A DNA stretch of 64,000 nucleotides. Origin: Rhabdaerophilum sp. (GTDB taxonomy: Bacteria; Pseudomonadota; Alphaproteobacteria; Rhizobiales; Beijerinckiaceae). Both the position numbers and the translations under genes were made by a program. Position 1 is the stretch's first letter. Every line of letters begins with the position of its first letter. This document shows, piece by piece, positions 4,017-64,000 of this stretch. The stretch is from NCBI GenBank assembly GCA_051654985.1, contig JBOFZC010000030.1, forward strand, positions 19,920-83,919, read 5' to 3'. The notes below the pieces were generated by a model. It had not been told where the DNA came from and searched no databases. It was given only the letters and a program-made list of their open reading frames with translations.

Positions 4017-4569
4017 CGTGGCGGTCGCAAACGCGCCTTGGGCACACGGCGCCCGATGCTGGTTCCGGATCGCGCCAATATCCGCTGGAGCCTCGACTTT
4101 GTGTCCGATGCCCTCACAGACGGCCGCCGCTTCCGCGTTCTGGCGGTCGTGGATGACTACACCCGCGAATGCCTTGCCCTCGTTGCAGATACCTCACTCT
4201 CGGGCATCCGGGTGGCGCGAGAGCTGGACGCGATCATCGCCAGGCGCGGCCGGCCATCGGCGATCGTGTCTGACAACGGCACCGAACTGACATCGATGAC
4301 CATCCTGCGCTGGTGTCAGCAAACCAGCGTCGAATGGCATTACATCGCGCCGGGAAAGCCGATGCAGAATGGCTTTATCGAGAGCTTCAACGGGCGCCTC
4401 AGGGCCGAATGCCTGAACGCCCACTGGTTCATGACGCTTGCGGACGCATCCGAAAAGTTGGAGGATTGGCGCAATTACTACAACACGGATCGGCCTCACG
4501 GCGCGATAGGCAATAAGCCTCCGATCCTGTTGCAAAGTCCCGGTAGCGTACCCAGCCCGCTACCGTGAC
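4010..4569 (+). mobile_element. IS3-family (IS407-like) OrfB fragment, 5'-truncated
   Basis: [11 protein letters not shown]...WSLDFVSD...IVSDNGTEL...[16 protein letters not shown]...DRPHGAIG. No OrfA or left end. Confidence 0.9.
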
Positions 4570-37932: not shown

Positions 37933-37938
37933 AATAGA

Positions 37939-42003: not shown

Positions 42004-42060
42004 ATCAAGATCTCTGAAAATTCGTTCGGGGAGTGAAGGCGCGTTGGATTGCTTGCGCCG

Positions 42061-43143
42061 TCAGATCGGTTGCCTCAGCTGGTTTGCGAGGCGGTTCTGA
42101 TCAGGGTTTTCACGGGCTCGCCCAAGCGGAGCCGGCATCCCCGTTTCGCGATAGCCTGCGACGGTATTCTGCATCCGCGCCGAGCGGCGCGCCGCAATAC
42201 GCTCATTGATCGAGAGCATGTTCGTGCCCGGGATTCGGGCATTGCCTGCCGCGTTGAAGAAGCGTCCGAGGCGGGTATAACCCATGGGAATCCCGCCAGC
42301 GATGGAGGCTGCGACAGCGTTCAACTGGTGGAGCAGAAGGATGCCGATGATGGCGATGAGAATGACGGGCGCGACATCCGCGAATGTCGTCGTGTAGCTG
42401 TTATTTGCCGTGTTGAGACGATCGAAAAACTGATGGGTCAGGCCGACATAGAAGGCGATGAACGCGTAGACCATGACCTGCACAATGAAATACTGCACCA
42501 GCGTCGCGAACCAGCCGGAGAAGAAGCGCGAGGTCACCCCAAACAGAAGCAACACGATGAAGATCGGAGCGAGGCCAAGAAGCAGCCACATGAAGACCTT
42601 CGAGAGGATGATCAGGAAGAGCCCGAAGCCGATCAGGATGGCCATGGCGATCAGCAGAGCCGTCGCGATGAAATAGGGGCCGGGATTGGTGATGCCCGCG
42701 TTCTTGACGAAGGCCGCGACCGCATTTCCCGTCGTATCCCAGAGGTTCTGGAGCGCGGTCTGGACGGCATTGACCGAGGTCAGGTTGATCGATAGCCCCG
42801 TATTGTTCATGGAGCCGACCGTGTTGAGGAGCGAGTTACCGATCGCAGCGGGCCCATCATTCATGGCCGTGTAGACGAGGCTCTGGAAACTGCCCCACTC
42901 GGTCGCGAGCGTGTAGATCAGGAAGGCCCGGAAGAGCCGGAAGGCGTGATCGGCAGGGCCACCGCTGGCTGTTCCCTGCCAGATCCCGATCCCCCAGAAA
43001 ATGACGTAGAGCGTCAACATCAGGCCGCCGACCGAGACGGGTCCGCCATCCGTCAGGGCCTGAGCCAGCGCGCCATAGGCATTGGCGACGTAGGTGTTCC
43101 CTGCACGGTCCACGTTGCTGAGGAGATCGGTGACGAGTGACAT
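42061..43143 (-). CDS. virB6: T4SS polytopic membrane protein
   Basis: Multiple TM helices, LGLAPIFI..LLF..TSRFFSGW. Position between virB7 and virB8. Confidence 0.9.
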   Translation of the reverse strand: MSLVTDLLSNVDRAGNTYVANAYGALAQALTDGGPVSVGGLMLTLYVIFWGIGIWQGTASGGPADHAFRLFRAFLIYTLATEWGSFQSLVYTAMNDGPAAIGNSLLNTVGSMNNTGLSINLTSVNAVQTALQNLWDTTGNAVAAFVKNAGITNPGPYFIATALLIAMAILIGFGLFLIILSKVFMWLLLGLAPIFIVLLLFGVTSRFFSGWFATLVQYFIVQVMVYAFIAFYVGLTHQFFDRLNTANNSYTTTFADVAPVILIAIIGILLLHQLNAVAASIAGGIPMGYTRLGRFFNAAGNARIPGTNMLSINERIAARRSARMQNTVAGYRETGMPAPLGRARENPDQNRLANQLRQPI

Positions 43144-43159
43144 CGGGCGACAGGTCCAA

Positions 43160-43348
43160 TCAGAGCGGGCGCAAAGGGCCGCATTCCGCGGCCGGAAGAA
43201 GCGCCGCAAGGGGCTCGGGCAAGATCGACATGACGAATGACGAGAGCGGCTGGGCATCACCGGGCTCACAGGGCGCCTTGAGTGGCCTGTGCCCACAGGC
43301 GCTGAGCAGAACCGCAAGGCCTATCACTTTAAAAAGCTTCCCGATCAT
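43160..43348 (-). CDS. virB7: Small lipoprotein (VirB7-like)
   Basis: Lipobox LSAC, second Cys in KAPC, ATGA overlap with the upstream gene. Confidence 0.7.
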   Translation of the reverse strand: MIGKLFKVIGLAVLLSACGHRPLKAPCEPGDAQPLSSFVMSILPEPLAALLPAAECGPLRPL

Positions 43349-44100
43349 CGCGCAGCACCATCTGGCGTATTGGTCGCGTTGAAAGGGCGATAGGTCATGG
43401 CATTGGCGGCGGCAGAAGCGGCAGCGAGACGGTCGAGATTGGCCTGATTGGTCGCGGTCACCGCTGTGTTCACGACACCGGTCAGTTCGTTCACGGTCTG
43501 CCCGGTTTGGATCTGCACTTGGGTGTTCTGGTCGATCGATCCTTTGAGATCGGGAGCCGAGCCGATCTGGTTTCCGCCCTGCATGAAAGCCGAGCTCCTT
43601 TGCTGAACGGCGCCCTGCGTCGCCGAGACGAGACCGGTGATGGTCGCCGCGACATTGACCGAGTTCTGGTAGGCCTGATCCGTCGGACGTGACGAACCAT
43701 TGATGAGGCCCGTGATCGAGCGGACGAGCTGCAGCCCGTTGATGAGGTTCGAGACGATTCCCTGGGCATCCGAACCCATCCCACCAAAAGCGAGCGTGCC
43801 GCCGGAGATCACGGAACCAAGGGAGGGCGCGCTGGCCATCGTGAACCCGCCGCCAAGAGCCATCTGGGCGAGCGACCCTTGCGCGACAGAGGAGCGATCG
43901 CCGGTGATCGCCTGCAAGGTCCGCTGTGTGTTCGTCAGGATCTCCCGGTCCGTCTCGAGGATCTGTCGCGTGGAGGAGGCGATCTCCTGCGCTTTGGCGA
44001 GATTGGCAGCATCATTCACAGGGACCTGCGCCAGGGCGGTTCCGCAACCAAGGCAAAGGAGGAGACCACCCAGGGCCGTGGAAATGCTCGAATGACGCAT
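43345..44100 (-). CDS. virB5: VirB5-like minor pilin, copy 1
   Basis: Signal peptide then QVPVND, DLKGSIDQN...Q..NEL helical region. Confidence 0.75.
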   Translation of the reverse strand: MRHSSISTALGGLLLCLGCGTALAQVPVNDAANLAKAQEIASSTRQILETDREILTNTQRTLQAITGDRSSVAQGSLAQMALGGGFTMASAPSLGSVISGGTLAFGGMGSDAQGIVSNLINGLQLVRSITGLINGSSRPTDQAYQNSVNVAATITGLVSATQGAVQQRSSAFMQGGNQIGSAPDLKGSIDQNTQVQIQTGQTVNELTGVVNTAVTATNQANLDRLAAASAAANAMTYRPFNATNTPDGAAR

Positions 44101-44110
44101 GGGAGTTCCT

Positions 44111-45034
44111 TCAGTTTTGACCGACAGCGCGCGCGCGGCTCGCAGCGAGTGCTTCAACGAGATCGGCTTCGGTGATCGTTCTGGTGTTGGGCTGCCTCGG
44201 TGCTGCAACCGGGGTGTCGAGCACGCGTCGGGAGGCAAATTCGAGATAGGTCAGGACATTGCCGTGGCTGTCGGTGTAGCGCCTGACGATGCAGGCGGGA
44301 TCAACCGGGGTGCCTGAGGGCGTCGTCGAACATTGGGAAGGGCGGCAGGGATCTGCATTCGTCCCGGAGCCGGTCATCCCTGCCGGGCAGGTTCGCCCTG
44401 GCAAAACAGGTGGTTGTGGCCCGACAAATACCCTCGCGCCTTGGCTGGAGTCACTCTGGTTCGCCAGATTGAGCGCATTCAGGGCCTGAACGAGGAGGTT
44501 TGCCGTGGCGATGGTCTGGTTCCAGCTCATCCCGTTCTGGACGCGGATTGAGGTGTTCTGGTCGAAGGCTTCCATGACGGTTTTCGTGGAGCCGACCTCA
44601 CCAGTGCGGGCTCGGTAGGCCCCTTGTGTTGCTTGAACCGTGCCTTGCGCCGCCTCGACGCCGGAGATGACCTTCCCGGTTTCTGATCCGAGTTGCTGTT
44701 CGCTGAGCGTGCCGCCCGTAGTACCGGGCTGTGGCGCTGCCGGCATGCCGGGCGTGTAACCCTGCACGGCGTTCGATCCCGTCGCGGGATTGGTCTGGCT
44801 CTCCGGATTCTTCACATTGCCACGGCCGCCTTTGGTCACTGCGCAGTTGATCCCCTCGCGTTTTCTTTTGTGATCGAGAAGGATCGTTTTCAGCTCGGTC
44901 TTGTGCCCGCTTTCCTGCGCTTTTCGCTCAAGGATCGCGGAATCGCGGACAGGCACATTCGCGTAAGCCGTGCCGGCGCCGATGAACATCCAGCCGACTA
45001 CGCCGAGGAAGGGGACAGAGCGAAGCTGCTTCAT
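44111..45034 (-). CDS. VirB5-like protein, copy 2, with Cys/Pro-rich tail
   Basis: Signal peptide then NVPVRD, TVMEAFDQNTSIRVQN. ATGA overlap with the virB4 stop. Confidence 0.7.
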   Translation of the reverse strand: MKQLRSVPFLGVVGWMFIGAGTAYANVPVRDSAILERKAQESGHKTELKTILLDHKRKREGINCAVTKGGRGNVKNPESQTNPATGSNAVQGYTPGMPAAPQPGTTGGTLSEQQLGSETGKVISGVEAAQGTVQATQGAYRARTGEVGSTKTVMEAFDQNTSIRVQNGMSWNQTIATANLLVQALNALNLANQSDSSQGARVFVGPQPPVLPGRTCPAGMTGSGTNADPCRPSQCSTTPSGTPVDPACIVRRYTDSHGNVLTYLEFASRRVLDTPVAAPRQPNTRTITEADLVEALAASRARAVGQN

Positions 45035-47460
45035 GCCGGGTTTCCTCCCGATGCTGAGGCGCGTCCCATGAATATAGGCAGCCAGATTGAGGGGTCGGTT
45101 CCGACCGTCCCCATCAGGAGTTCGAGCTCGGCGACGGTTTCCGTCCGGCCCGAGAGGACCTTGATGAGATCGCTCATGCCGGAAAGGTTGAGTTTGGCGA
45201 TGACACTGTCCTGCCCGTGCTTGATCAGGAAGGAGCGCTGCTCCGGTACGGAAGTCCGGATCCATTCGACCTCACGCGCCGAGAGCCTGAAGGCCTTCCG
45301 GTAGCTCTCGTCATCCGCCTTGGGGTTCGGGAAAAAGATATTGGTAGAGGTCTGTTCGATCAGGGTGTTGGCTGATTTCGAACGGACGATATCGGCTGCG
45401 GATTGAGTTCCAAACCCGATGATCCCGTTCTGCTTCCTGATCGTCTTGAGCTTGTCCTTGATGAAGGAAGCGAAGACCTCATCGTCGAGAAGCCGCCAGC
45501 CCTCGTCGAGGAAGATCATGACGGGATCGCCATTCAGCAGCTCGTTCGTCCGGTGGAAGATATACATCAGCGCAGCTGTGCGAATGACCGGGTCATCCAG
45601 CACCCGGGTCATGTCGAAGCCGTAGATTGAACCAAGCGAAAATTTGTCTGTCTCGTTATTGAAGAGCCAGCCGCGCTGATCCGGCTTCAGCCAGGTCTCG
45701 AGACGCCCGAGAAGATCGCCCTCGCTCGCGCGAATGCGACCGCGGAGGAGAGTGGCGAAGGCGGGAAGTGTCTTGCCTTCGACGGGGCCAGTCAGAACCG
45801 CAGCGATCGCGTTGCGGATCACCTGCTCTTCGGATGCTGACATCAGCCGATCATCGACCGGTTTTAACATGTAGGCAAAGAGCTGGAACAGGAACTCGCG
45901 GTTTTCGCCATTGTCCGGAAGCGCCAGCGGATTGAAGCCCGTGGGCTCGCCCGGTGAGAGTACTTCATATTGCCCGCCCATGGCGCGGATGAAGATTTCA
46001 GCGCCCCGATCCTTGTCGACAAAGAGGAGCTTCGGACGCGGCACAATCCGCTGCGCCTGAGCTGACAGAAACGACAGGAAGACTGTCTTTCCCGAACCTG
46101 AGGGCCCGACCACCGTGAAATTCCCGAGATCGCGGATATGGGCATTGAAATAATACGCCGTCTGGGAGCTCGTCTCGAAGACCGAGAGTGCGGGTCCCCA
46201 ATGGTTCCCCTTGGCTTGTCCCGAGGGGTAATTGTGGAGCGAAGCAAAGCCGGAGAAATTCTTCGAGGAAAGTGTGGCTTTACGCGCGATATAGGCGAAA
46301 TTCCCGGGGAGCTGCGCCCAGAAGGCCGGCTCGCAATTGAGATCCTCGCGCACCCAGATGACGGAGCGATCCGTAAGCGCTGCGCCAAGCGCGGTAATCG
46401 CGGCATTGACCTCGTGGAGATTGCGCCCGAGCGGCATCACCGAGAAATGGTGCTCGCCATAGATTGCTTCAGACGCGAGAAGCTCGTCCCTTGCGATCGC
46501 GAGATGGTCAGCGACGACGGATTCTGCTTCATCCGACATATCGACCTGGCGCGTCACGCGATCGATCTGTTTGGCGGCTTCAGGACGATCGATGATCGCA
46601 AAACTCTGGGTCAGGATAAACTCGTGCGGGACCTTCAGAAGGAGGTCCAGGGATCCCGGCCCGGAAAAGGCAGGGTATTCCCGGATCGAGAGCATCGCGC
46701 CGAAGCGCGTTTCGGCATCGGACGCTCCTCGGATTTCGATGGCATTGCGACCGAAGAAGATGCGCTTCTGGGAGAGCGCTTCATCGAGCGGCATGCGCGG
46801 CAGGGGCATGGGACGCGGCACACCGCCATTGACGAGCTGGAGCAGGAACTCGAGCGGCTCGGAATGCCAGATGCCGTCACGGGCTTCAACCGAAAGGCTT
46901 CGTGCGCCATAGGCACCGAGGGTTTCGCGAATGGCGGTCGTCACATCACTGAGTTCAGAGAGAGCTTCCGCTTCGTCCGCAGAATGGCCGCCAGCGGTCT
47001 TCTTGCCGAGAATGGCTGCAAGGAGACCTTCGAAATTGCCGGCCTGTCCCTGGAGTGGGCGGCGGAGAATCGTCAAGTAGATGTCGTTGACGAACATCCG
47101 GCGTTTCCCGAGCGCCTGATGGTAGCGACGGTCGAGCTCGGCACAGAAAGCGTTGTCAAAGGTCGAAGGGATGCCCGGTTCGACCTCCCGGCGGATGATG
47201 TGCTGGTAAAGTGCGAAACGGGAATTCCCGAGCATGCGCACGAGATCGTTACGCGCCATCATGCGTGCGTTGATCTCGCTCATATCCGCCGTCTCGAAAC
47301 AGTAACCCTCGAGCTTGAGCGTCGTCAGGAGGAGGCCCGTCTTAGTCCTGATGGTGCGATCATCGACATGACGGGCATAGGGGATATGGATCCCGAGCGG
47401 GCGCTCGCGACTGGCAGCCGTCCCAAAGGTCATTTCCGAGAGAAGTGCCCGCGCAACCAT
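45031..47460 (-). CDS. virB4: T4SS ATPase
   Basis: FWAQLPGN, GPSGSGKT, DKDRG, GFNPL, FLDEGW, RKQNG. Confidence 0.95.
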   Translation of the reverse strand: MVARALLSEMTFGTAASRERPLGIHIPYARHVDDRTIRTKTGLLLTTLKLEGYCFETADMSEINARMMARNDLVRMLGNSRFALYQHIIRREVEPGIPSTFDNAFCAELDRRYHQALGKRRMFVNDIYLTILRRPLQGQAGNFEGLLAAILGKKTAGGHSADEAEALSELSDVTTAIRETLGAYGARSLSVEARDGIWHSEPLEFLLQLVNGGVPRPMPLPRMPLDEALSQKRIFFGRNAIEIRGASDAETRFGAMLSIREYPAFSGPGSLDLLLKVPHEFILTQSFAIIDRPEAAKQIDRVTRQVDMSDEAESVVADHLAIARDELLASEAIYGEHHFSVMPLGRNLHEVNAAITALGAALTDRSVIWVREDLNCEPAFWAQLPGNFAYIARKATLSSKNFSGFASLHNYPSGQAKGNHWGPALSVFETSSQTAYYFNAHIRDLGNFTVVGPSGSGKTVFLSFLSAQAQRIVPRPKLLFVDKDRGAEIFIRAMGGQYEVLSPGEPTGFNPLALPDNGENREFLFQLFAYMLKPVDDRLMSASEEQVIRNAIAAVLTGPVEGKTLPAFATLLRGRIRASEGDLLGRLETWLKPDQRGWLFNNETDKFSLGSIYGFDMTRVLDDPVIRTAALMYIFHRTNELLNGDPVMIFLDEGWRLLDDEVFASFIKDKLKTIRKQNGIIGFGTQSAADIVRSKSANTLIEQTSTNIFFPNPKADDESYRKAFRLSAREVEWIRTSVPEQRSFLIKHGQDSVIAKLNLSGMSDLIKVLSGRTETVAELELLMGTVGTDPSIWLPIFMGRASASGGNPA

Positions 47461-47467
47461 CCCTGCC

Positions 47468-47764
47468 TCACACGGAATAGCTGTCCGCGCCCCAGAAGGC
47501 GCGAGAGCGGGGTGGGCATTTCGTGGAGCGAACGAAGAGAATCTCGAAGATCCTCTCATCGCGCAGGGTCATCACGAACCCGAAGAGATGGAGCGGGATC
47601 GCAACGAGCAGCATGGCCAAGTTGTGGCTCGCCAGAAAGATGACGGCGGTCGCGACGCCGTTCATCATAAAATACATGTAGGGAACGCCCATCAGCGTCG
47701 GCGCGCGCGTCAGAGCCCTGACGAGCGGGACGATCAGGGGCTTTTCGAGATCGTTCTCGGTCAT
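47468..47764 (-). CDS. virB3: T4SS protein
   Basis: PLVRALTRAPTLMGVPY, FWGADSY. Confidence 0.92.
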   Translation of the reverse strand: MTENDLEKPLIVPLVRALTRAPTLMGVPYMYFMMNGVATAVIFLASHNLAMLLVAIPLHLFGFVMTLRDERIFEILFVRSTKCPPRSRAFWGADSYSV

Positions 47765-52085: not shown

Positions 52086-52547
52086 ATGTCCCGCGCCACC
52101 ACCGCACACCGTGCTCCGCCGCCCAACCAGGCTGAAATTACGCTTGCCCGCTCCTCGGCTCAGCGCCTGGGTTCGCTTGTCCGCAGAAGCGAGCCCTTGC
52201 GTGTCCGTGTGATTGATCGCGGACAGGAGGCGCCGATCGAGCTTCCTGCCGTCGCCGTCGACCTCTTGCTGGATATCCTTGGCGCGATGGCTGCCGGCCA
52301 AGGCGTGACCATCATCCCTGAGAATGCCGAACTCACGACCGTGCAGGCTGCCGGGGTTCTCAATGTCTCGCGACCGTTTTTGATCAAGCTCCTTGAGGAT
52401 AATGCCATTCCGCACCGGAAAGTCGGGAAGCACCGCCGGGTCAGAATGGAAGACGTCATGGCTTATAAGGCGCGGATCGACCGTGACCGGGAAGCCGTGC
52501 TCGACGCTCTTGTCGCCGACGCTCAGGAGCAGGGCATGGGATACTGA
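52086..52547 (+). CDS. Excisionase-type (HTH_17) DNA-binding protein
   Basis: IELP..AVDLL..IL.AMAAGQGV, LTTVQAAGVLNVSRPFLIKLL...VGKHRRV. Confidence 0.92.
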   Translation: MSRATTAHRAPPPNQAEITLARSSAQRLGSLVRRSEPLRVRVIDRGQEAPIELPAVAVDLLLDILGAMAAGQGVTIIPENAELTTVQAAGVLNVSRPFLIKLLEDNAIPHRKVGKHRRVRMEDVMAYKARIDRDREAVLDALVADAQEQGMGY

Positions 52548-52553
52548 GCGGGG

Positions 52554-53123
52554 ATGACCTACACCGCGCTCCTCGACGCCAATGTGCTCTATCCCGCTGT
52601 CACGCGGGATATTCTCATGCGCCTTGCTGTCACCGACATCTACAAGGCGCGCTGGAGTAACGACATTCACCGGGAATGGATCGAAAATCTCATCGATAAT
52701 GAGCCAAAACGCGAGCGCGCCAAACTGGAGCGCACGCGTGAACTCATGGACCTCAATGTCCGGGATGCGCTGGTTACAGGATACGAGCCGCTCATTCCTG
52801 GGATTGTCGGCTTGCCCGACCCGGATGATCGGCATGTCCTTGCGGCCGCAATCGTCGGCCGCTGCGATGTGATCGTGACCGCGAACTTGCGAGATTTCCC
52901 GGAGGCAGCGATCGCACCTTATGGGATCGAGGCGATCCACCCCGATGAGTTCCTGGGCTCCCATCTCAGTCTTGCCCCGGGTCTCTTCTGTGGCTGCGTG
53001 AAGCGCATTCGGGCTCAGCTCAAGAACCCTCCCATGAGCGTCGAGGACTATCTCGGAAAGCTGGTCGCATGTGGATTGGTCGCGACCGCAAAGGCGCTCG
53101 AGCAATATGCCGAATTAATCTGA
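52554..53123 (+). CDS. PIN-domain protein
   Basis: LLDANVLYP, WSNDIHREW, LPDPDDRHVLAAA, IVTANLRDFP. Confidence 0.92.
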   Translation: MTYTALLDANVLYPAVTRDILMRLAVTDIYKARWSNDIHREWIENLIDNEPKRERAKLERTRELMDLNVRDALVTGYEPLIPGIVGLPDPDDRHVLAAAIVGRCDVIVTANLRDFPEAAIAPYGIEAIHPDEFLGSHLSLAPGLFCGCVKRIRAQLKNPPMSVEDYLGKLVACGLVATAKALEQYAELI

Positions 53124-54125: not shown

Positions 54126-54173
54126 GACGGTTTGAGAGGGGAAGAGAGAGGTTCTGCCCCGACCGTCGTGGAG
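54126..54173 (+). promoter_or_regulatory. Purine-rich hairpin leader of the ParB-like gene
   Basis: GACGGT(54126-31)/ACCGTC(54162-67) outer stem, GGGG/CCCC inner stem, GGAG RBS immediately 3'. Confidence 0.5.
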
Positions 54174-54182
54174 ATGACGGAC

Positions 54183-56324
54183 ATGACCCAGACGGATTCC
54201 AGCACTGTTACTCACCGGCCCATAGTTGGTGCCCTCGCCGCCCCTCGCGAGGTTCCCCTTTCCCAGCTCGTCTCTTCTGCTGCCAATGTCCGGAAGGTTC
54301 GAGCCTTCATGAGCATTGACGATCTCGCGGAGGACATCGCGCGTCGGGGGCTCCTGCAGTCGCTCTCTGTCCGTCCCGTGATAAATGATGCTGGCGTCGA
54401 GACGGGGCAGTTCGCTGTTCAAGCCGGAGGGCGACGCCTCGCCGCCCTTCAGAAGCTTCAAGCAGAAGGCCGCATCAGCCCTGATCATCCGATCCCCTGC
54501 CTCGTCAAATCCACCGGCATCGAGGTCGAGGATTCGCTTGCTGAGAATGTGATGCGCTCCGGTCTTCATCCGCTCGACCAGTTCCGGGCCTTCAAGGCTC
54601 TGGCCGACGATGAAGGGCTCTCGGTCGATGAGATCGCGGCACGGTTTTTCGTCTCGCCGCAGGTCGTTCGCCAACGCCTGAAGCTCGCCTCTGCAAGCCT
54701 GACCCTGCTTGCGGCCTATGCCGAGGACGAGATGACGCTCGATCAACTCATGGCGTTCTGCGTGACGGCGGAGCATGCCCGCCAGGAAGGGGTCTGGGAG
54801 CAGATCCGGCATGGCTACAACAAGGAGCCCTACCTGATCCGGCGCCTTCTCATGGAAGGTGCGGTCAAGGGCAATGATCGGCGCGTCCTTTTCGTGGGAG
54901 CTGCCTCCTACGAAGCCGCTGGCGGTGTGATCCTGCGCGATCTCTTCTCGGAGGATGGCGGGGGCTGGTTTCAGGCTGGTGCGCTGCTCGACCGTCTCGC
55001 CATGGAGAAGCTGGCCGAGGAAGCCAAGGGCATCGCCACCGAGGGCTGGAAATGGGTCAAAACGGCCCTCACCTTCCCCTATGGCCATCTCAACGGCCTG
55101 ACACGGCTCTCATCGACACCGGTGCCGGTCTCGGCTGATGAGCATGCGCGTTATGACGCCACCCTTGCCGAGTACAATGCGCTGTCAGAGGAATTCGAGG
55201 GCGTCGAGGAACTTCCCGAGGAGATCGACCAGCGCATGGGCGAGCTCGAAGACATCCTCGCGAGGGTCGATGAACGCCCCGAGATCTTCAATCCAGAGGA
55301 AATCGCCAATGCCGGGGTTTTCGTCAGCATCGAGCACGATGGTCGTCTGCGCGTCGAAGCTGGCTATGTCTGCCCAGAAGATCGCGTTGCAATTGCACCT
55401 CGTCAGTCGTCGAGCAGTCCGACCACAGGCGATGATTCTGCTTTGTCCTGCCAGACTGGAGGCGTTGGACCGAAAACGTCAGAGGATGCCGATGACGTCG
55501 AAACGGAGACCACGGCCCGCCTCTCCGACCGCCTCGTCGCCGAACTCACGGCCTATCGGACGCTCGCCTTGCGGGAAGCCATGGCTGATGATCCCGATAC
55601 CGCGCTCCTCACCTTGACGCATGCCCTAGTGCTCAAGAGCTTCTACCGCTTCGCTGGTTCGGAGACCTGCCTCGAGCTCGATATCCGGTCCTCCTCGTTG
55701 GAGGCGTATGCACCTGACCTCGGCGAAAGCGATGTCGCCAATCGGATGAGCGCCCGCCAGGCGCGCTGGGCTGGGATGCTGCCGAAAAATCCCGGTGATC
55801 TCTGGGATGCGCTTGTCGCCTTTGATGCGGATTCGCTCGCAGCCCTCTTCGCGTGGTGCGTCTCGACAGGCGTCAATGCACTGCAACTCCCGCACATACG
55901 CCGCACCCGTGAACTCGATCATGCCGACCGGCTCGCGGATCATGTCGATCTCGATATGCGCCGCCATTGGTCTGCGACCTCGAAAAGCTTCTTCGGGAAG
56001 GTCACGAAATCCCAGATCCTCGTGACGGTGCGCGAGGTGAAGGGCGAGGCGGCAGCCCAAATGATCGATCACCTCAAGAAGTCTGACATGGCAACTGAGG
56101 CAGAGCGCCTTGTCGCCGGCGCAAACTGGTTGCCGGCTCCCTTGCGATCGATCCATGAGATGGGCTTGCACGCGCTTGTCGCCCCATCTGCAACGACGGT
56201 CGAAGCTCCCACACAGCCCGCGAGCGAAGGGAGTGAGGATGCCGATTCAGAGGCTGTTACGCTCCCAGCCTTCCTGACTGAGGGCCTGGCAACGGCGTCA
56301 ACTTATCCCATCGCCGCCGAATAG
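54183..56324 (+). CDS. Large ParB/Spo0J-like protein of conjugative elements
   Basis: NVRKV, IARRGLLQSL.V, AGGRRL.AL, SLAEN..R..LHPLDQF, HTH V.QRLKL, C-terminal LPAFL...IAAE. Confidence 0.92.
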   Translation: MTQTDSSTVTHRPIVGALAAPREVPLSQLVSSAANVRKVRAFMSIDDLAEDIARRGLLQSLSVRPVINDAGVETGQFAVQAGGRRLAALQKLQAEGRISPDHPIPCLVKSTGIEVEDSLAENVMRSGLHPLDQFRAFKALADDEGLSVDEIAARFFVSPQVVRQRLKLASASLTLLAAYAEDEMTLDQLMAFCVTAEHARQEGVWEQIRHGYNKEPYLIRRLLMEGAVKGNDRRVLFVGAASYEAAGGVILRDLFSEDGGGWFQAGALLDRLAMEKLAEEAKGIATEGWKWVKTALTFPYGHLNGLTRLSSTPVPVSADEHARYDATLAEYNALSEEFEGVEELPEEIDQRMGELEDILARVDERPEIFNPEEIANAGVFVSIEHDGRLRVEAGYVCPEDRVAIAPRQSSSSPTTGDDSALSCQTGGVGPKTSEDADDVETETTARLSDRLVAELTAYRTLALREAMADDPDTALLTLTHALVLKSFYRFAGSETCLELDIRSSSLEAYAPDLGESDVANRMSARQARWAGMLPKNPGDLWDALVAFDADSLAALFAWCVSTGVNALQLPHIRRTRELDHADRLADHVDLDMRRHWSATSKSFFGKVTKSQILVTVREVKGEAAAQMIDHLKKSDMATEAERLVAGANWLPAPLRSIHEMGLHALVAPSATTVEAPTQPASEGSEDADSEAVTLPAFLTEGLATASTYPIAAE

Positions 56325-57202: not shown

Positions 57203-57897
57203 GGCAGGCCATCAGAACCGGGGGCAAAAGGCGCAAAGATTGCAACTTGGGCTAGTCGGCTTCGCGCCCCCAATGCGGTCACTGAGGGGAAGCTTCAGTT
57301 AACCCGGAAGCGGCCGATCGGAGCGGCTTGTTTGGCACCAGTTACAGCGATGCCTGCAACTCAGTCAGTTTGATCATCAGCGTTCGCGGCTGGGCGGGCG
57401 CAGCTTCCAGCCCTACCGCTCGACAATATGCTGCTGCCTCGTTGGAAATGGCGTGAATGAGCAGACATCGAATGCTGATGGTGTCCGCTGCGATCTTGAG
57501 GTGTGGCGTGGTCACTCTACCACTGGAGAGGCGGCTACTCACGTTCCCGGTTGTCCACTTACCCACAGCAAGCCTTGGCGGATAAGGTGGGACCGCCACA
57601 GGGTTTGGCCTCATTCTGAGTTTCAAGCGGCGTACCACTCGCCGGGCGGGCAGACAGTTAAACCTGAACCCTGACGTTGATGAGATCGGGCGTGATGGGC
57701 CCGAAAGAGCTGCATCGGACGCACGCTGCCGTTGACTTCCAAAGTCGACTTTGCCGCCTGCTTGAGTATTTCACGTTCAGAGACTTTCCGCACGATCGCG
57801 GCGAGCTTGCCCGAGCGCACGTGCTGTGGGGAGCTTGTCAGTCCGCCGAACCACAAAGGCCACTGCCGTAATTTGCAGAAAAAACTCTTGTCTATGA

Positions 57898-57950
57898 ATT
57901 GTCAGAAAAAACATTAGAGATATTGACATTGTCAGTTTTTGTCTCCATGT
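57898..57950 (+). promoter_or_regulatory. AT-rich promoter with TGACA/TGTCA repeats
   Basis: TTGACA at 57922-27 inside the palindrome TGACA-T-TGTCA. ATTGTCAG occurs twice. Confidence 0.55.
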
Positions 57951-57970
57951 TTTGACGCATGGAGGGTGCC

Positions 57971-58549
57971 ATGACCGATGGTCCGTTCAAAAATTTAAAA
58001 CTCGGGAACTGCTGGAAGCGGTTGGTCGACGCCGTGCAAAACGACGCGGCATCGTCCGAGGAATGTCGCGCCGTCGCGTCAGATGCGCTAGCCCGCCACC
58101 TCGTTACGAAAGAGCATATCAAGGCAATTAACGAGCTCGACGCACATCTTAGTAAGGGTCAGCTAGAGCTCGATCCGGTGGGGTCGATCGACGCCATCTT
58201 CGACCGCTGCGGGAAGACGCCGTTCCTCGACGCGCTTCAGAAAGAACTGGCGTATCGGACGGCCAATGACACGCCGCTCAGCGATGCCGTTGCACCCGCG
58301 CTCGACGCCGCCATCGCTTTGCAGATCGGCGAAACGCAGAGCCGGTTCCATGAGGAATGCATCCGCGCATACGAAGACGGTGAGATCAGCCGGAGTGCAT
58401 CAGACAACGCGCGTAGAAAAGTGGATGTCGCCTTCGACGCCCTAGACTACGGGAAGGTCCGCACCGCACTGATTGAAGGTCGAAAGGACGCCTTCGAGAG
58501 CGACTTCGGCAAGAGCGACGGTGTCGATGATGGGATGGTCCGATTGTGA
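57971..58549 (+). CDS. Unknown helical protein (N-terminus MTDGP)
   Basis: GGAGG RBS before ATG at 57971. Stop overlaps the next GTG (GTGA). Acidic DxxDDG C-terminus. Confidence 0.85.
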   Translation: MTDGPFKNLKLGNCWKRLVDAVQNDAASSEECRAVASDALARHLVTKEHIKAINELDAHLSKGQLELDPVGSIDAIFDRCGKTPFLDALQKELAYRTANDTPLSDAVAPALDAAIALQIGETQSRFHEECIRAYEDGEISRSASDNARRKVDVAFDALDYGKVRTALIEGRKDAFESDFGKSDGVDDGMVRL

Positions 58550-59937
58550 ATACCCAAGTGACTAGTCCCGAGCACTATGGCCTGAGATTGTGCGTCGTCG
58601 AGGCAGGACGACGGCAGGTGCGATCCCAGCATCGATCAACGATCATCGCTGAAATCGGCCGGGAGATCACCTTTGTCCCGGATGCGCTGGATACCTACAC
58701 CTATGACGGATGGAAACCGATCCACCACGATCTTCTGGTCATAAGCGCAGCGGTTGAATATTCGGATCGCCGCACGGCAAGGCGGATCAGCCAGTGGGCG
58801 CGCGATTTTGACATCACGGTGCCCGTTGTCGAATGGGCTACGTGGCAACAACCCGAGGTGCAGGCGAGCCTTCGTGCTGCGTTGCGGCATCTGACCGGCG
58901 ACGAGTGGCACTTCACCTTTGTTCCCTGGCAGGGAGCAAGCGTTCTCGGCGCGCGGCAGCGGTTGCTCCCGTTTGGGACGGAAAAAAGCTTCGTCATCGC
59001 CTACAGCGACGGACTGGATTCGCGCTGTGTCTCCAAGGTGTCTGGGATAGGGCGCGATGCCGTTTGCGTCCGCGTTACCAAACATCGTCATGCCCATAAG
59101 GCGGGTGATGAGCCGTTCGACCAGATCCCCTTCCGTGTCGATGTCCCCTCCGCCCGGGAAAGCAGTGTGCGATCGCGCGGATTCAAGTTTGCCGCCGTGA
59201 CGGCTATTGCCGCGCATCTAACGGGACTGACTAGAATTGTCGTTCCTGAGAGCGGTCAGGGTGCACTGGGTCCGGTGCTACTGCCCTTGCACAACGTCTA
59301 TGCCGACTATCGCAATCATCCGACCTTTTTTCGCAAAATGGAGCGGTTCATCAGGGCGTTGCTCGGCCATCAAGTCCGCTATGAGCAACCGCGCCTCTGG
59401 AACACGAAAGGCGAGACGATTTCTGCCTTTCGGCTTGCAACGAATAAGGCAGTCGAGGAACTCTTCGATACTCGCTCGTGCTGGCAGCAGCGCTGGAACG
59501 CGAAGGTGGACGGCAAGCTGCGGCAGTGCGGCCTTTGCGCCGCTTGTCTGCTTCGCCGGATGAGTATGCACGCGGCAAGGATAGACGAGCCGAAAGACAC
59601 CTATGTCATCGCCGATCTGACGGTTCCGTCGTTTCAGGATGCGCTGCCGGGCAGGAAAAAGGTCCGACTCAGCCGGTCGATGGCCGAGTATGGCAGCGTC
59701 GGCGCGCGGCACCTCCAGCAATTGGCTGACTTGGCGGACCGGTCCGACGGAGATCTGAAGGTTCACGCATTCGAGATCGCGCGCGCGATGGGGGAGCCAC
59801 CGGACGACGTGTTGAAGAAACTCAGGACCATGTTGCTGACGCACGCGAAGGAATGGCGCGGCTTCATGGCCGCTCAAGGAGAAAAAAGCTTCCTCAGAAG
59901 CTGGACGAAGGGAGGGCGTCATGGCCGATCTGAATGA
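58546..59937 (+). CDS. QueC-like (QatC-type) PP-loop enzyme
   Basis: N-terminal DLL...AVEYSDR..W.RDF.ITVPV...LTGDEWHFTF domain, YSDGLDS PP-loop, RSRGF, PESG, TKGE, TRSCW, CGLCAACLLRR zinc site. Confidence 0.88.
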   Translation: MNTQVTSPEHYGLRLCVVEAGRRQVRSQHRSTIIAEIGREITFVPDALDTYTYDGWKPIHHDLLVISAAVEYSDRRTARRISQWARDFDITVPVVEWATWQQPEVQASLRAALRHLTGDEWHFTFVPWQGASVLGARQRLLPFGTEKSFVIAYSDGLDSRCVSKVSGIGRDAVCVRVTKHRHAHKAGDEPFDQIPFRVDVPSARESSVRSRGFKFAAVTAIAAHLTGLTRIVVPESGQGALGPVLLPLHNVYADYRNHPTFFRKMERFIRALLGHQVRYEQPRLWNTKGETISAFRLATNKAVEELFDTRSCWQQRWNAKVDGKLRQCGLCAACLLRRMSMHAARIDEPKDTYVIADLTVPSFQDALPGRKKVRLSRSMAEYGSVGARHLQQLADLADRSDGDLKVHAFEIARAMGEPPDDVLKKLRTMLLTHAKEWRGFMAAQGEKSFLRSWTKGGRHGRSE

Positions 59938-61111
59938 GTTGAGCGCACAGGAAATAGGTCGGCGCCTGCGTCTGGCTCGAGAGAATGCGGGCATTCGCCA
60001 GGATGAGGCGGCCGACGTAATTGGCATGTCACGCCCGACACTGGTCTCCATCGAAAAGGGCACGCGGCGCGTTCGCATACAGGAGCTACAATTACTAGCG
60101 CGGCACTACGGGGTCTCCGTCAACGCGCTTCTGCGTCGAGAAGCCGTTCATACCGATCTGGTGCCGCGGTTTCGCAAGATGCGGGAGACGGAAGACGACC
60201 ATACGCTGGAAGCCATCGAGCTTCTCAATGACCTGGTGAAGGCTGAAGTGGAACTCGAAAACGTCCTCGGCGTCGAGCGGAGGCGCCACTATCCGCCCGA
60301 GAAAGGGATCAACGACGGCGACGCTATAGAGCTAGCAGAGAAGCATGCGCAGGAGCTGCGTGATTGGCTCGGCCTGGGTGGAGGGCCGATTGCCGACATC
60401 TTTGCCGTCATCGAACTCGATCTCGGCGTTCGCCTGTACCAGCGACGCCTGTCCTCGACGTCAAAAGTCGCAGGCTTGTTCGCGTATGACGAGGTCGTCG
60501 GCGCATGCATTCTTCTCAACGCGAATCATCCGCTGGAACGGCGCATCCAGTCTGCTGCCCATGAAATCGGGCATTTCGTCGGAACGCGCCGAGTGCCCGA
60601 AGTTCTGGAAGATGACGAGCAGTTCTTCTCGCGGGACGAGCGGTATGCGAATGCTTTCGGCCGCGCCTTCGTGACGCCTCGAAAGAGCTTCTCGGAGTGC
60701 TTCAAACAGCTGACGGCTGGCGCGGACATGCTTACCCGTCGGCATGTCATTCTGCTGGCCCACCAGTACAACATCTCCCGCGAGGCATGCGTCCGTCGAC
60801 TCGAAGAGCTGGAGCTTTTAAAGAAGGGCACGTGGGAATGGCTCAAGACGAAGGGCGGGATCAAGGACCATCACGCGCGTGAAGTACTAGGAGACGCCGC
60901 CGTTCGTCTCGACATGGCCAAGACAGATGCCAACCGACCAATCTCCCACAGAATGAGCCTCATGGCGCATGCGGCGTGGAAGCGTAGCATCATGTCGGAA
61001 GGGCAGCTGGCGGAGCTACTGAGGATGCGGCGCGTTGAGGTGCGCGAGCTGATCGACCAGATCGAGCTTGAGGAAAACGTGACGGATGACCTTCTCAAGC
61101 TCCCTGGCTGA
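59921..61111 (+). CDS. XRE-HTH fused to ImmA/IrrE Zn metallopeptidase
   Basis: IGRRLRLARE...QDEAA...RPTLVSIEKG HTH, AAHEIGH (HExxH), ERYANAF. Start overlaps the QueC-like gene. Confidence 0.93.
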   Translation: MADLNELSAQEIGRRLRLARENAGIRQDEAADVIGMSRPTLVSIEKGTRRVRIQELQLLARHYGVSVNALLRREAVHTDLVPRFRKMRETEDDHTLEAIELLNDLVKAEVELENVLGVERRRHYPPEKGINDGDAIELAEKHAQELRDWLGLGGGPIADIFAVIELDLGVRLYQRRLSSTSKVAGLFAYDEVVGACILLNANHPLERRIQSAAHEIGHFVGTRRVPEVLEDDEQFFSRDERYANAFGRAFVTPRKSFSECFKQLTAGADMLTRRHVILLAHQYNISREACVRRLEELELLKKGTWEWLKTKGGIKDHHAREVLGDAAVRLDMAKTDANRPISHRMSLMAHAAWKRSIMSEGQLAELLRMRRVEVRELIDQIELEENVTDDLLKLPG

Positions 61112-61748
61112 TGACCACAGGCCGCTGGTACTCGACACGAGCGTTCTGGTGAACCTGCACGCCTGCACATACGGTGAGCGGGTGCTGTCGGCAATTCAAA
61201 ATGAAATCGTAGTTGCTGACATCGTCGCCGGCGAATTGGAGCACGAGACGAGCCGGAGGAACGGGGAACTCAGCTTCCTCCATGACATGATTAGACGCGG
61301 CAAGGTCACCATCATCGGCATGACCGAAGCGGAGGGCAACCTGTTTGCGAGGCTTTCCGGTGGCCCCTCCTCTCTGGATGACGGCGAAGCGGCCACGGTT
61401 GCCATCGCCACCCATCGCGGCTTCCGCACCGTCATCGATGAACGAAAGGGCCGCGCCCGCGCCGTGGCGATGATGAACGGCGACGCGCCCGCCTGGTCCC
61501 TTGATCTGCTACGACACATCAGCGTCATAAAGAGCCTCGGCGAGAAACTGGCCGCAGACGTCGTCTATCTGGCACTTCGATACGGGCGGATGCGCATCCC
61601 ATCGGAGTGCGGCGATGATGTCGTGGCTCTGATCGGACGCGACCGCGCCCTTGAATGCACCTGCCTGCCGAACTTCAAAAGCCTGTTGCAGGAGGCGCGG
61701 TCGAGCAATGAAATGGAAGCGGCACCGAGTTCTCGGAATCGGCGATAA
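61086..61748 (+). CDS. PIN-domain nuclease
   Basis: LVLDTSVLVNL, V..EL, LDDGEAATVAIA, IDERKGR, SLDLL. Start overlaps the peptidase gene. Confidence 0.88.
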   Translation: MTFSSSLADDHRPLVLDTSVLVNLHACTYGERVLSAIQNEIVVADIVAGELEHETSRRNGELSFLHDMIRRGKVTIIGMTEAEGNLFARLSGGPSSLDDGEAATVAIATHRGFRTVIDERKGRARAVAMMNGDAPAWSLDLLRHISVIKSLGEKLAADVVYLALRYGRMRIPSECGDDVVALIGRDRALECTCLPNFKSLLQEARSSNEMEAAPSSRNRR

Positions 61749-61821
61749 GACGCCGATCAATCCACATAATGAAAGACGAAGTTCGCCATATTGTGGCAAC
61801 ATTTAGTTGTGGAGGCACAAA

Positions 61822-63555
61822 TTGACTCGTATACGCGCGGTTGAGATCAAGCACTTCAGAGGGATAAAGGATCTCGTCTGGTATCCATCTCCCGGCATTA
61901 ACTGCTTGATAGGTCCTGGCGACAGTGGGAAATCATCAATTCTCGATGCCATCGACTTCTGTTTGGGTGCGCGTCGAAACATCCAGTTCACTGACGCGGA
62001 CTTCCATCAGCTACACGTAGAGACGCCGGTCACGATCACAGTGACGCTGGGCGAACTTGAGGATGGACTCAAGAACATCGACACCTACGGAATGTTCGTC
62101 CGTGGTTTCGACCCAGCGACCAAGAAAATCGAGGATGAACCAGAGAAAGACGCCGAAACGGTCTTAAGCCTGCGGCTGACGGTCGCCAGCGATCTAGAGC
62201 CGAGCTGGACGCTGGTGTCGGAGAGGGCGGAAGCGCAAGGCCTTGGCCGAAATCTCAGTTGGGGAGACCGCATCAGGCTGGCGCCGACGAGGATCGGTGC
62301 GCTGGCCGATTACCATTTAGGTTGGCGGCGCGGCTCGGTTCTGAACCGTGTATCGGAAGAGCGTGCGGATACTTCGGCCGCACTTGCGAAGGCAGCAAGG
62401 GATGCCCGGGCGGCCTTCGGCGAAGAGGCCCAAGGGCAACTTGGTGATACGCTGATGATCGTAGCGGCAACCGCCAAGGAACTAGGCATCCCGATAGGTG
62501 AGAATATCAAAGCGATGCTGGACACCCACTCCGTATCGTTCAGCGGCGGGACGATTTCGCTGCATGATGAGGGGGGTATACCGCTTAGGGGATTGGGCAT
62601 CGGGTCTACCCGACTGCTGATCGCTGGGCTTCAGCGAAAGGCGGCCTCTCAGTCGACAGTGATCCTTATCGACGAGCTGGAACATGGGCTCGAACCGCAC
62701 CGCATTATCCGCCTTCTAGGGTCACTCGGTGCCAAGGAAAAGACGCCGCCACTCCAAGTTTTCATGACGACACACTCACCCGTCGCGTTGCGCGAGCTCT
62801 CCGGCAGCCAGTTGTTCGTGGCACGACGGTCTGGTGACCGCCAAGACGTATTGAGCGTCGGCACCGCCGACGGTGTCCAGAGCACGATCCGGCTCTATCC
62901 AGATGCTTTCCTCGCGCCTTCGGTGATCGTCTGCGAAGGCGCAAGCGAGGTCGGTCTTGTGCGAGGGCTGGATCAATACAGGACAGCGCAAGGTAAGGAA
63001 GCCATCACAGCGCGGGGAGTCGCGTTAGTCGATTGCGGTGGCGGCGATTCTGACCGGCCTTTCGAAAGAGGAGGAGCTTTCCAAGGCCTTGGATACAAGG
63101 TTGCCGTCGTTCGCGACGATGACAAGAAGCCGACACCTGATATTGAAAGCAAATTTATCGCCGAAGGCGGCGAAGTAATTGCTTGGCGTGACGGCCGCGC
63201 ATTGGAAGACGAGCTCTTCTTAAGCCTGTCTGAAGATGGGGTCAGAAAACTTGTGGCTCGTGCGATCGATCTTCATGGCCACGATCTGGTGAACGAGCAC
63301 ATCAAATCAGCCAGCAAGAATGCAAAGGACCTTGGGGCGATCCTGACCGAGACAGAAGCAGGAGAAGTCACCACGGAAAGTAGAGCGGCGCTTGGCACAG
63401 CGGCGCGCACAAAACGCGCCGGGTGGTTCAAGTCGGTCACTTGGATGGAGGACGTGGCGCGAGACATTATTGGCCCGGACTTGCCAAAAGCGGATGCCAG
63501 CTTCCGCGACCTTGTTGAGAGCATCTTCGCGTGGAGCGCTAATGCCGATGCCTGA
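61822..63555 (+). CDS. OLD-family ATPase-TOPRIM nuclease (GajA-like)
   Basis: IKHFRGI, GPGDSGKS, GLGIGS, IDELEHGLEPH, TTHSP, VCEGASE, RDDD. GGAGG RBS before TTG at 61822. Confidence 0.92.
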   Translation: MTRIRAVEIKHFRGIKDLVWYPSPGINCLIGPGDSGKSSILDAIDFCLGARRNIQFTDADFHQLHVETPVTITVTLGELEDGLKNIDTYGMFVRGFDPATKKIEDEPEKDAETVLSLRLTVASDLEPSWTLVSERAEAQGLGRNLSWGDRIRLAPTRIGALADYHLGWRRGSVLNRVSEERADTSAALAKAARDARAAFGEEAQGQLGDTLMIVAATAKELGIPIGENIKAMLDTHSVSFSGGTISLHDEGGIPLRGLGIGSTRLLIAGLQRKAASQSTVILIDELEHGLEPHRIIRLLGSLGAKEKTPPLQVFMTTHSPVALRELSGSQLFVARRSGDRQDVLSVGTADGVQSTIRLYPDAFLAPSVIVCEGASEVGLVRGLDQYRTAQGKEAITARGVALVDCGGGDSDRPFERGGAFQGLGYKVAVVRDDDKKPTPDIESKFIAEGGEVIAWRDGRALEDELFLSLSEDGVRKLVARAIDLHGHDLVNEHIKSASKNAKDLGAILTETEAGEVTTESRAALGTAARTKRAGWFKSVTWMEDVARDIIGPDLPKADASFRDLVESIFAWSANADA

Positions 63556-64000
63556 GATCGACTTGCTCGCGGTCGACCGGGGGACAGTGACAGCGCCGGC
63601 CGGGTGCGGCAAGACACACATGATCGCTGAGGCACTGACGCGGCACAGCGGTGACAAACCCATCCTCGTTTTGACTCACACCAATGCTGGCGTCGTCGCC
63701 TTGAGAGGCCGCCTCGACAAAGCGGGCGTACCGTCGCAGGCATATCGGCTCTTGACGATCGACGGCTGGGCAATGCGGCTCATCTCGACGTTCCCTAAAC
63801 GCAGCGGACACGATCCAAATCTTCTCAAGCTAGCCAGCCCGGGTACGGATTATCCGAACATCAGGGTTGCTGCCTCAAAGTTGTTGAAGGCAGGCCACGT
63901 CGCTGACGTGCTCAAGGCGAGCTATGCGCGGCTCATTGTTGACGAGTATCAGGACTGTTCGATCCGCCAACACGCTGTTGTCGGCTTTGCGGCACAAACG
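63548..64000 (+). CDS. UvrD-like helicase (GajB-like), runs off the window
   Basis: Manual translation: MPEIDLL...APAGCGKTH, LTHTNAG, TIDGW, IVDEYQDC. Start overlaps the OLD stop. Confidence 0.9.
   Translation, partial: MPEIDLLAVDRGTVTAPAGCGKTHMIAEALTRHSGDKPILVLTHTNAGVVALRGRLDKAGVPSQAYRLLTIDGWAMRLISTFPKRSGHDPNLLKLASPGTDYPNIRVAASKLLKAGHVADVLKASYARLIVDEYQDCSIRQHAVVGFAAQT

Follow-up and report, generated by a model that had tools for sequence, protein, structure and literature searches.

In this study, we analysed a 64,000-nucleotide stretch of DNA from Rhabdaerophilum sp. (contig JBOFZC010000030.1; hereafter the window), and concentrated on a module of four overlapping genes on its forward strand, g1, g2, g3 and g4, which encode a small helical protein, a QatC-like enzyme, a putative repressor-protease and a PIN nuclease, respectively. 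The module begins with g1 (57971-58549; 192 amino acids, ATG at 57971, stop codon at 58547-58549), followed by g2 (58546-59937; 463 amino acids, GTG start at 58546, stop codon at 59935-59937), g3 (59921-61111; 396 amino acids, ATG at 59921, stop codon at 61109-61111) and g4 (61086-61748; 220 amino acids, ATG at 61086, stop codon ending at 61748). Adjacent genes overlap by 4 nt (GTGA) at g1/g2, 17 nt at g2/g3 and 26 nt at g3/g4; a ribosome-binding site, GGAGGG, is located at 57961-57966, 4 nt ahead of the g1 ATG, and no terminator-like site was found on the forward strand within the four genes. An earlier reading of the same DNA (the original prediction) had described four open reading frames (ORFs) with overlapping stop and start junctions, and its coordinates matched the sequence exactly. 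The motifs that it had picked out were each located in the window proteins, namely SDGLDS (YSDGLDS, residues 153-159) and CxxCxxC (CGLCAAC, residues 328-334) in g2, HEIGH (residues 214-218) in g3 and the PIN aspartate (Asp17 in LVLDTS) in g4. An in-frame ATG at 57959 was considered as the start of g1 and rejected, since the homologues all begin at the Met of a conserved M-T/S-D-G-P sequence; a stop codon often lies just 5' of this Met in the homologues.

Eighteen aligned g2 homologues were used to scan GTDB with one genome per species, which yielded 162 confirmed relatives; the best 80 loci were fetched and analysed, and the gene order of each was read by tblastn with the four window proteins. 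The order g1-g2-g3-g4 was found in 76 of these 80 loci, and the exceptions were three loci cut by contig ends (L039, L080 and L081) and one interrupted inside g3 (L069). A reciprocal scan seeded with g4 recovered the complete quartet in 75 of 80 loci, the remaining five being two contig-edge cuts and three decayed or truncated copies. The four genes therefore do co-occur in order across genomes, far beyond what chance would give; co-occurrence was one of the points by which the original prediction could have been refuted. The hosts of the g2-seeded loci belong to about eight phyla and comprise Alpha-, Beta- and Gammaproteobacteria, Desulfuromonadota, Acidobacteriota, Verrucomicrobiota, Melainabacteria and Gemmatimonadota, with taxa such as Geobacter/Geoalkalibacter, Bryobacterales, Puniceicoccaceae/Opitutales, Melainabacteria/Obscuribacterales and Gemmatimonas. 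The junctions are conserved as well: the g3/g4 overlap is 26 nt in 74 of 79 loci, the g2/g3 overlap is 17 nt in 54 loci and 8 nt in 15, and the g1/g2 overlap is 4 nt in 26 of 28. With both the order and the overlap lengths kept across loci, the description of the genes as one operon holds, and the operon is translationally coupled.

The surroundings of the quartet differ between loci. A total of 442 flanking ORFs fell into 364 clusters, so that the flanks are almost wholly unrelated and only the quartet is constant, which argues that the quartet moves as a unit. Plasmid-borne copies retain the order at g2 identities as low as 34% (R. rhizogenes, Methylocystis and Roseomonas), whereas g2 matches at no more than 30% identity lie in canonical QatABCD loci; the QatC superfamily thus splits into two architectures, with the quartet at 34% identity and above and QatABCD at 30% and below. 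The quartet is a strictly conserved, horizontally mobile operon, and the four genes very probably form a single functional unit. No relative of g2 was found in IMG/VR viral contigs, and the module is therefore not phage-borne. No flanking repeats marking a cassette boundary were found at the window module, and a search of sequencing runs matched metagenomic DNA runs only, with no RNA run for a transcript.

The four encoded proteins

The assignment of g2 as a QueC-like enzyme in the original prediction was upheld and could be narrowed towards QatC. The protein matched QatC in the PDB (9vlk, E = 8e-15; 9zee, 6e-11) and in PADLOC (E = 2.9e-31); it scored 117.7 bits against the NCBIfam QatC equivalog, whose cutoff is 280, and shared 20-24% identity with canonical QatC. 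In an alignment with seven canonical QatC proteins (A7), the catalytic and metal sites of g2 were those of QatC, including the PP-loop S154-x-G156-x-D158-S159, the zinc ligands C312/C328/C331/C334 and R337-R338. The QatC-specific motifs listed previously (PMC13329287) were also kept, namely D62, D74/R79/W84/R86, D119-x-W121-xxx-F125, R209-x-R211, E235-x-G237, H258-P259 and T287-K288; the adjoining G289 is shared with QatC as well. The loop before the His-Pro pair differs, reading S-T-R-T-T-H-P in QatC and D-Y-R-N-H-P in the g2 family; two Thr of this substrate loop are essential in QatC (PMC13279940), and with the loop changed the bound substrate may differ. Pfam QueC reached 20.5 bits on g2, against a cutoff of 22, and covered residues 257-342 only, the region of the zinc site; most of the g2 family has no Pfam QueC match. 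These comparisons suggested that g2 belongs to a sister clade of QatC, rather than being its equivalog, and is of the long type with N- and C-terminal extensions.

The g1 family, always encoded directly upstream of g2, consists of proteins of 185-196 amino acids with conserved termini. The original prediction had listed g1 as an unknown protein, and no match was indeed found in Pfam, NCBIfam, PADLOC, PHROGs or the PDB sequences, but g1 is a member of a distinct family: a profile search of 1.84 billion proteins returned 201 clusters, all of its own family, in which nearly all full-length members had the same length range. Among the four proteins g1 is the fastest to evolve (25-74% identity across loci), but both of its ends are conserved. 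At the N-terminus, the sequence M-[TS]-D-G-P-[FHY] is near-invariant in the 163 full-length members (D3 in 155, G4 in 152 and P5 in 153), with Thr or Ser at position 2 in 142 of them, and a G-[LVI]-D-[ED]-G motif stands 6-7 residues from the C-terminal end in 124. Thr or Ser at position 2 permits removal of the Met. The AlphaFold2 (AF2) model of g1 is a nine-helix bundle (mean per-residue confidence, pLDDT, 85; predicted template-modelling score, pTM, 0.80), with an N-terminal tail of about 12 residues. A Foldseek search of this model against a PDB library extending to 2026-04-08, which may predate the QatB structures, gave no match at E ≤ 0.001; only generic helical bundles were returned and, as the library may lack QatB, the search is uninformative on a QatB-like fold. 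The QatB models of PADLOC and NCBIfam did not match g1 even at E = 10.

An extreme N-terminus that is conserved next to a QueC-family enzyme is the mark of the substrates QatB and CdnD, whose N-termini, MGTS and MGGS, are essential (PMC13279940; bioRxiv 10.1101/2025.04.06.647259). All seven canonical QatB proteins that we took from annotated plasmids begin with MGTS and carry long low-complexity tails. Because g1 combines an invariant N-terminus beside a QueC-family enzyme with a Thr or Ser at position 2 that allows Met removal, we take it to be a likely counterpart of QatB in function, with no demonstrable homology, and a candidate substrate or partner of g2. In addition, the disordered C-terminal tail of g1 (58514-58546) contains the family-wide sequence G-[LVI]-D-[ED]-G-[PMV]-x-[LR], which resembles the N-terminal D-G-P and might serve as an additional site of recognition or cleavage, by the g3 peptidase for instance. 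One database protein of 418 amino acids (P0348) was observed in which the first ~300 residues of a g2-like enzyme are joined to residues 74-190 of a g1-like protein, and it probably represents a rearranged or mis-assembled locus, not a natural fusion.

The third protein comprises an XRE helix-turn-helix (HTH) domain at residues 11-75, an M78/ImmA-IrrE (COG2856) zinc peptidase at residues ~166-300 and a UPF0175-like segment at residues ~347-380. The first two were recognized by Pfam (HTH_3, 4e-13; Peptidase_M78, 6e-15), in agreement with the XRE-ImmA peptidase named in the original prediction. PADLOC models of RmrA matched residues 13-326 at 3e-22 to 1e-7, those of capP and capH matched at 1.8e-12 and 2.6e-7, and phrog_2439, a phage HTH-peptidase regulator family, matched at 1e-36. 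Thus g3 shares its HTH and M78 architecture with RmrA, CapH/CapP and ImmR/ImmA. Of the four proteins it shows the strongest conservation (57-93% identity across loci), and its HExxH sequence (HEIGH) is invariant among the members. Weak matches to UPF0175/COG2886 were detected at the C-terminus of 9 of 16 members (best E = 5e-4); COG2886 has been predicted to comprise antitoxins of the HTH type that are associated with PIN genes (PMC2701414). We propose that g3 may act as an autorepressor, a protease switch and a PIN antitoxin.

The fourth protein is a VapC-like PIN domain protein that falls into the COG2405/DUF3368 group and has kept its acidic site complete, as the original prediction had in part foreseen. 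Pfam PIN matched 19 of 21 g4 members, precomputed PF11848 (DUF3368) annotations were present on every listed homologue, and the acidic residues D17, E50, E54, D99, E101 and D118 are invariant. The AF2 model (pLDDT 90) matched VapC (5x3t_B; TM-score 0.72) and SSO1118 (2mdt; 0.73), the latter being the representative of COG2405. A C-terminal helical extension of about 70 residues follows. Against PADLOC, PDC-S70 was the sole match (1.2e-8), and no RmrT model was hit. It is proposed that g4 would be the effector toxin. Two decayed modules were also seen in which an apparently intact PIN gene is preceded only by a fragment of g2 (L165, 3129-5043) or of g3 (L180, 4341-5115).

Upstream region and genomic setting

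The region ahead of g1 contains a candidate promoter with operator-like boxes on the forward strand. A -35 hexamer, TTGACA (57923-57928), is fused to a proximal operator-like box, TGTCAG (57930-57935), the whole element covering 57923-57935, in which TGACA-T-TGTCA (57924-57934) is an 11-bp palindrome with its left arm within the -35 hexamer. A distal operator-like box, AATTGTCAG (57897-57905), carries TGTCAG at 57900-57905, and a candidate -10, CATGTT (57946-57951), follows the -35 after a 17-nt spacer. Among 80 distinct upstream regions, TTGAC recurred at position -48 relative to the g1 ATG and TGTCAG at two positions, -41 and about -71, the distal copy being present in most of them; the two boxes were 30 bp apart in 63 of the 66 loci with two copies, and the positions of TTGAC and TGTCAG were conserved across phyla, against a background of about 0.5 TGTCAG per kb on both strands. 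At other loci the -10 is nearer to the consensus, for example TACATT in L042. Such a layout would be the geometry of a repressor-occluded promoter and, as g3 is the only DNA-binding protein of the operon, it would be natural for g3 to bind these boxes and autorepress the operon. A third, degenerate operator-like box, AATTTGCAGAAAAAAC (57870-57885), lies 27 bp upstream of the distal TGTCAG, and a further TGTCAG occurs at 57836.

Downstream, a Gabija system begins 58 nt after g4, with a complete GajA (61807-63555; PADLOC E = 1e-238) and a GajB (63542-64000; E = 7.6e-70) whose start, at about 63542, falls within the last bases of GajA and which is truncated at the edge of the window. Gabija was rejected as a component of the module: it was directly downstream only in L007 and L011 of the 80 g2-seeded loci, and nearby upstream in L024, L026 and L035. 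Other copies adjoin Shedu, Lit, DUF3800, a type IIG restriction-modification enzyme, AriA, AbiEi or mad3, and a PADLOC scan of 128 non-redundant flanking ORFs identified type IIG restriction-modification, GajA, AriA, AbiEi, mad3 and Old. This habitat fits a defence island. Copies of the module were located on conjugative plasmids, integrative and conjugative elements (ICEs) and large plasmids, and many are chromosomal, such as that on chromosome 1 of Paraburkholderia xenovorans (NC_007951) and those on several complete chromosomes of metagenome-assembled genomes.

The window itself is part of a conjugative plasmid or ICE, as it carries a type IV secretion system (T4SS) and conjugation block on the reverse strand (36280-47559; VirD4/TraG, VirB11, TrbI/VirB10, CagX/VirB9, TrbL/VirB6 and VirB4/TrbE). 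Metal-resistance cargo occupies 8387-35093, where an RND pump is accompanied by a membrane-fusion protein and a sensor kinase and where two P-type metal ATPases and one multicopper oxidase are also encoded, and an insertion sequence with an rve integrase lies at 3540-4568. A toxin-antitoxin (TA)-like pair consists of an excisionase-type HTH gene (TIGR01764; 52086-52547) and, after 6 nt, a PIN gene (52554-53123) whose product is of the RSP_2648 family (NCBIfam, 1e-36, under the equivalog cutoff). Between the T4SS block and the defence genes stands a gene for a 730-residue ParB-like protein (54132-56324), in which the N-terminal domain is that of ParB (PRTRC-ParB-like, E = 3e-18) and the long C-terminal portion has no annotation; at L002 and L003, the corresponding upstream position is taken by an ArdC-like antirestriction gene.

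Proposed mechanism and alternative explanations

Taken together, we consider the module most likely to be a Qat-family defence system against phages or mobile elements in which the output part is a different one, a reading to which we give a probability of about 0.55. The homology of the proteins and the identity of the neighbours suggest that the unit is probably a defence system. The individual steps set out here, drawn from homology and conservation, are tentative, and for these we would put the odds somewhat below even. In the resting state, dimers of g3 would bind TGACA-N-TGTCA overlapping the -35 together with the upstream TGTCAG and hold the operon low, and the UPF0175-like C-terminus of g3 would keep the g4 PIN inactive, as in a type II TA pair. 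Meanwhile g2 would bind g1 and use ATP to acylate its exposed N-terminus, at Thr or Ser 2 after Met removal, by analogy with the action of Cap9 on CdnD and of QatC on QatB; the acyl donor might be 7-carboxy-7-deazaguanine or another carboxylate. Infection may then alter the state of g1/g2, or otherwise signal to the M78 peptidase of g3, so that g3 is cleaved. Cleavage would de-repress the operon and free the PIN, which would degrade RNA and abort the infection.

Several points weigh against this reading. A simple promoter scan did not call a promoter for g1 and the -10 in the window is weak, so that the promoter and operator claim rests on cross-locus conservation. There is no detectable similarity of g1 to QatB, an hhalign comparison with seven canonical QatB proteins giving a probability of 1.2%, and residue 2 of g1 is Thr or Ser, whereas QatB and CdnD require Gly there. 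The substrate loop of g2 departs from those of QatC, Cap9 and QueC alike, and even the QatC reaction has not been reconstituted (PMC13279940). Furthermore, the UPF0175 matches of g3 fall below the Pfam threshold, the neighbour evidence is qualitative and has no background control, and the coupling of g1/g2 to g3/g4 is pure inference. The term peptidase-gated PIN toxin, which the original prediction used for g3-g4, should likewise be taken as putative, as should defence system.

Other explanations of the locus were weighed. The halves could be two independent adjacent systems without cross-talk, a QatBC-like pair (g1-g2) and a RosmerTA-like TA (g3-g4): QatB and QatC alone suffice against some phages (PMC13279940), HTH-COG2856 and PIN pairs have been predicted as stand-alone TA modules (PMC2701414, PMC5499597), and defence genes often cluster. 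However, the halves were never found apart, as all full-length g2 relatives with at least 34% identity had g3-g4 downstream, and g1-g2 stood upstream of g4 in 75 of 80 loci, the others being truncated or decayed. The conserved 17-nt g2/g3 overlap, a conserved promoter/operator upstream of g1 where g3 has no intergenic space before it, and the constancy of the quartet amid unrelated flanks point the same way, which makes independence quite improbable. A module that serves as an addiction or stress TA cassette stabilising plasmids and ICEs, with g1/g2 as an accessory modifier and no anti-phage role, would agree with the copies on conjugative elements and large plasmids, with the predicted TA architecture of a PIN and an HTH-peptidase and with the presence of another PIN TA-like pair in the window (52086-53123). 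This appears unlikely when set against the many chromosomal copies (e.g., NC_007951), the defence enzymes that are the closest characterised relatives of g2 and the bona fide defence genes that recur as neighbours; besides, TA function and abortive-infection defence can coexist.

A metabolic role, in which g2 would be a 7-cyano-7-deazaguanine (preQ0) synthase and the operon would belong to queuosine or deazaguanine metabolism, is the reading implied by the annotation pipeline PGAP, which calls the homologues 7-cyano-7-deazaguanine synthase, and the weak Pfam QueC match of 20.5 bits could be taken in its favour. That score is nevertheless under the gathering cutoff and confined to the zinc-site region, g2 has the extensions and motifs specific to QatC and not the catalytic motifs of QueC (PMC13329287), QatC fails to complement a queC deletion (PMC13329287), and no queD, queE, queF or tgt was among the flanking genes read; we regard this role as scarcely credible.

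Returning to the reading as a Qat-family defence system, its most novel version is that the QueC-family enzyme places an acyl or nucleobase adduct on the Thr/Ser, rather than Gly, N-terminus of a dedicated small helical protein and that this protein, once modified or demodified, serves as the intracellular signal which trips the repressor-protease-antitoxin and thereby releases the PIN. This version is speculative and, in our judgement, doubtful. If true, it would couple a protein-nucleobase conjugate directly to a TA-type effector and reveal a step downstream of Qat-type modification. What QatC makes and how QatB modification restricts phage have been stated as open questions (PMC13279940), and a module that pairs a QatBC-like core with a legible switch and toxin may offer a tractable read-out for Qat-type chemistry, in which cleavage of g3, release of a defined promoter from repression and toxicity of the PIN could serve as signals. 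A further suggestion from the family is that QueC-family enzymes can target proteins whose N-termini are other than Gly. On the practical side, the module family is mis-annotated in RefSeq.

Comparison with known systems

No system name was returned for the locus by PADLOC v2 or NCBIfam r20 (2026), in which only fragments were recognised (QatC-like, RmrA-like and PDC-S70-like), and the RefSeq/PGAP names are hypothetical, 7-cyano-7-deazaguanine synthase, XRE regulator and hypothetical. A peptidase or PIN variant is not mentioned in the QatBC structure papers or in the QueC-family survey (PMC13329287), and QueC together with PIN, peptidase or ImmA was not found in the literature full text. These databases and the searchable literature agree with the statement in the original prediction that no named system is known with this architecture. 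The neighbourhood table for the QatC cluster in that survey, which was based on PF06508, lists only KAP_NTPase and TatD_DNase (PMC13329287), and the present family is probably absent from the survey because most members have no Pfam QueC match.

Type IV CBASS (cyclic oligonucleotide-based antiphage signalling system) is similar in that a QueC-family enzyme, Cap9, accompanies a protein with a conserved N-terminus, CdnD. It differs in that the module has no CD-NTase, Cap10 (TGT-like) or cyclic-nucleotide effector, and Cap9, at about 185 amino acids, is much shorter than g2, which belongs with the long QatC proteins; neither a CD-NTase nor a TGT-like gene was found in the module or the window flanks. 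CapH/CapP likewise offers an HTH and M78 protease as transcriptional switch of a defence operon, but HTH and protease are fused in g3, which is encoded inside the operon and not upstream of it.

For the second half of the module, pairs of HTH-COG2856 and COG2405 PIN genes have been predicted as three-component TA systems (Makarova 2009, PMC2701414; Matelska 2017, PMC5499597). The g3-g4 pair corresponds to an Xre-COG2856 and COG2405/DUF3368 PIN pair, in that the fused HTH-peptidase gene lies just upstream of the PIN gene and overlaps it by a conserved 26 nt, and the acidic site is intact. The pairing of a peptidase with a PIN in the original prediction was correct as architecture, but the pair itself had already been predicted as a TA. 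RosmerTA is comparable as well, since g3 matches the PADLOC RmrA profiles across HTH and peptidase; it is, however, a two-gene and not a four-gene unit, and g4 matches no RmrT profile. Unlike the predicted Xre-PIN TA pairs and RosmerTA, the pair here is always preceded by g1-g2, and g3 has an extra UPF0175-like C-terminus.

The closest counterpart of the first half is QatABCD (Gao et al. 2020; PMC13279940, PMC13376578, PMC13639016), of which the QatB-QatC core is the minimal functional unit (PMC13279940). In both, the gene of a small all-helical protein lies upstream of, and overlaps, the gene of a QueC-family PP-loop ATPase of about 460 amino acids; g2 has the same N- and C-terminal extensions, zinc site and signature motifs as QatC, and g1 shares with QatB a highly conserved extreme N-terminus. 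In contrast, QatB has 250-330 amino acids, a long disordered tail and M-G-T-S at its start, as compared with 192 amino acids and M-T/S-D-G-P in g1; where the substrate loop of QatC has an essential Thr-x-Thr, g2 has D-Y-R; the g2 score lies far under the NCBIfam QatC cutoff; and the module adds an HTH-peptidase and a PIN nuclease. Neither QatA (KAP NTPase) nor QatD (TatD) occurs in the window, or in the module at any listed or annotated locus; both were present in the canonical Qat loci fetched as controls. The original prediction had already noted that the module lacks QatA, QatD and a CD-NTase, in line with the gene and profile scans of the window. It had missed that g1 and g2 mirror the QatB-QatC core, and for this reason its proposal of a new system stands only in part: the locus has no system name, but the label of a Qat-family variant fits it better than that of an entirely new design. 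Both halves of the module are of known kinds, and their combination looks like an undescribed relative of QatABCD.

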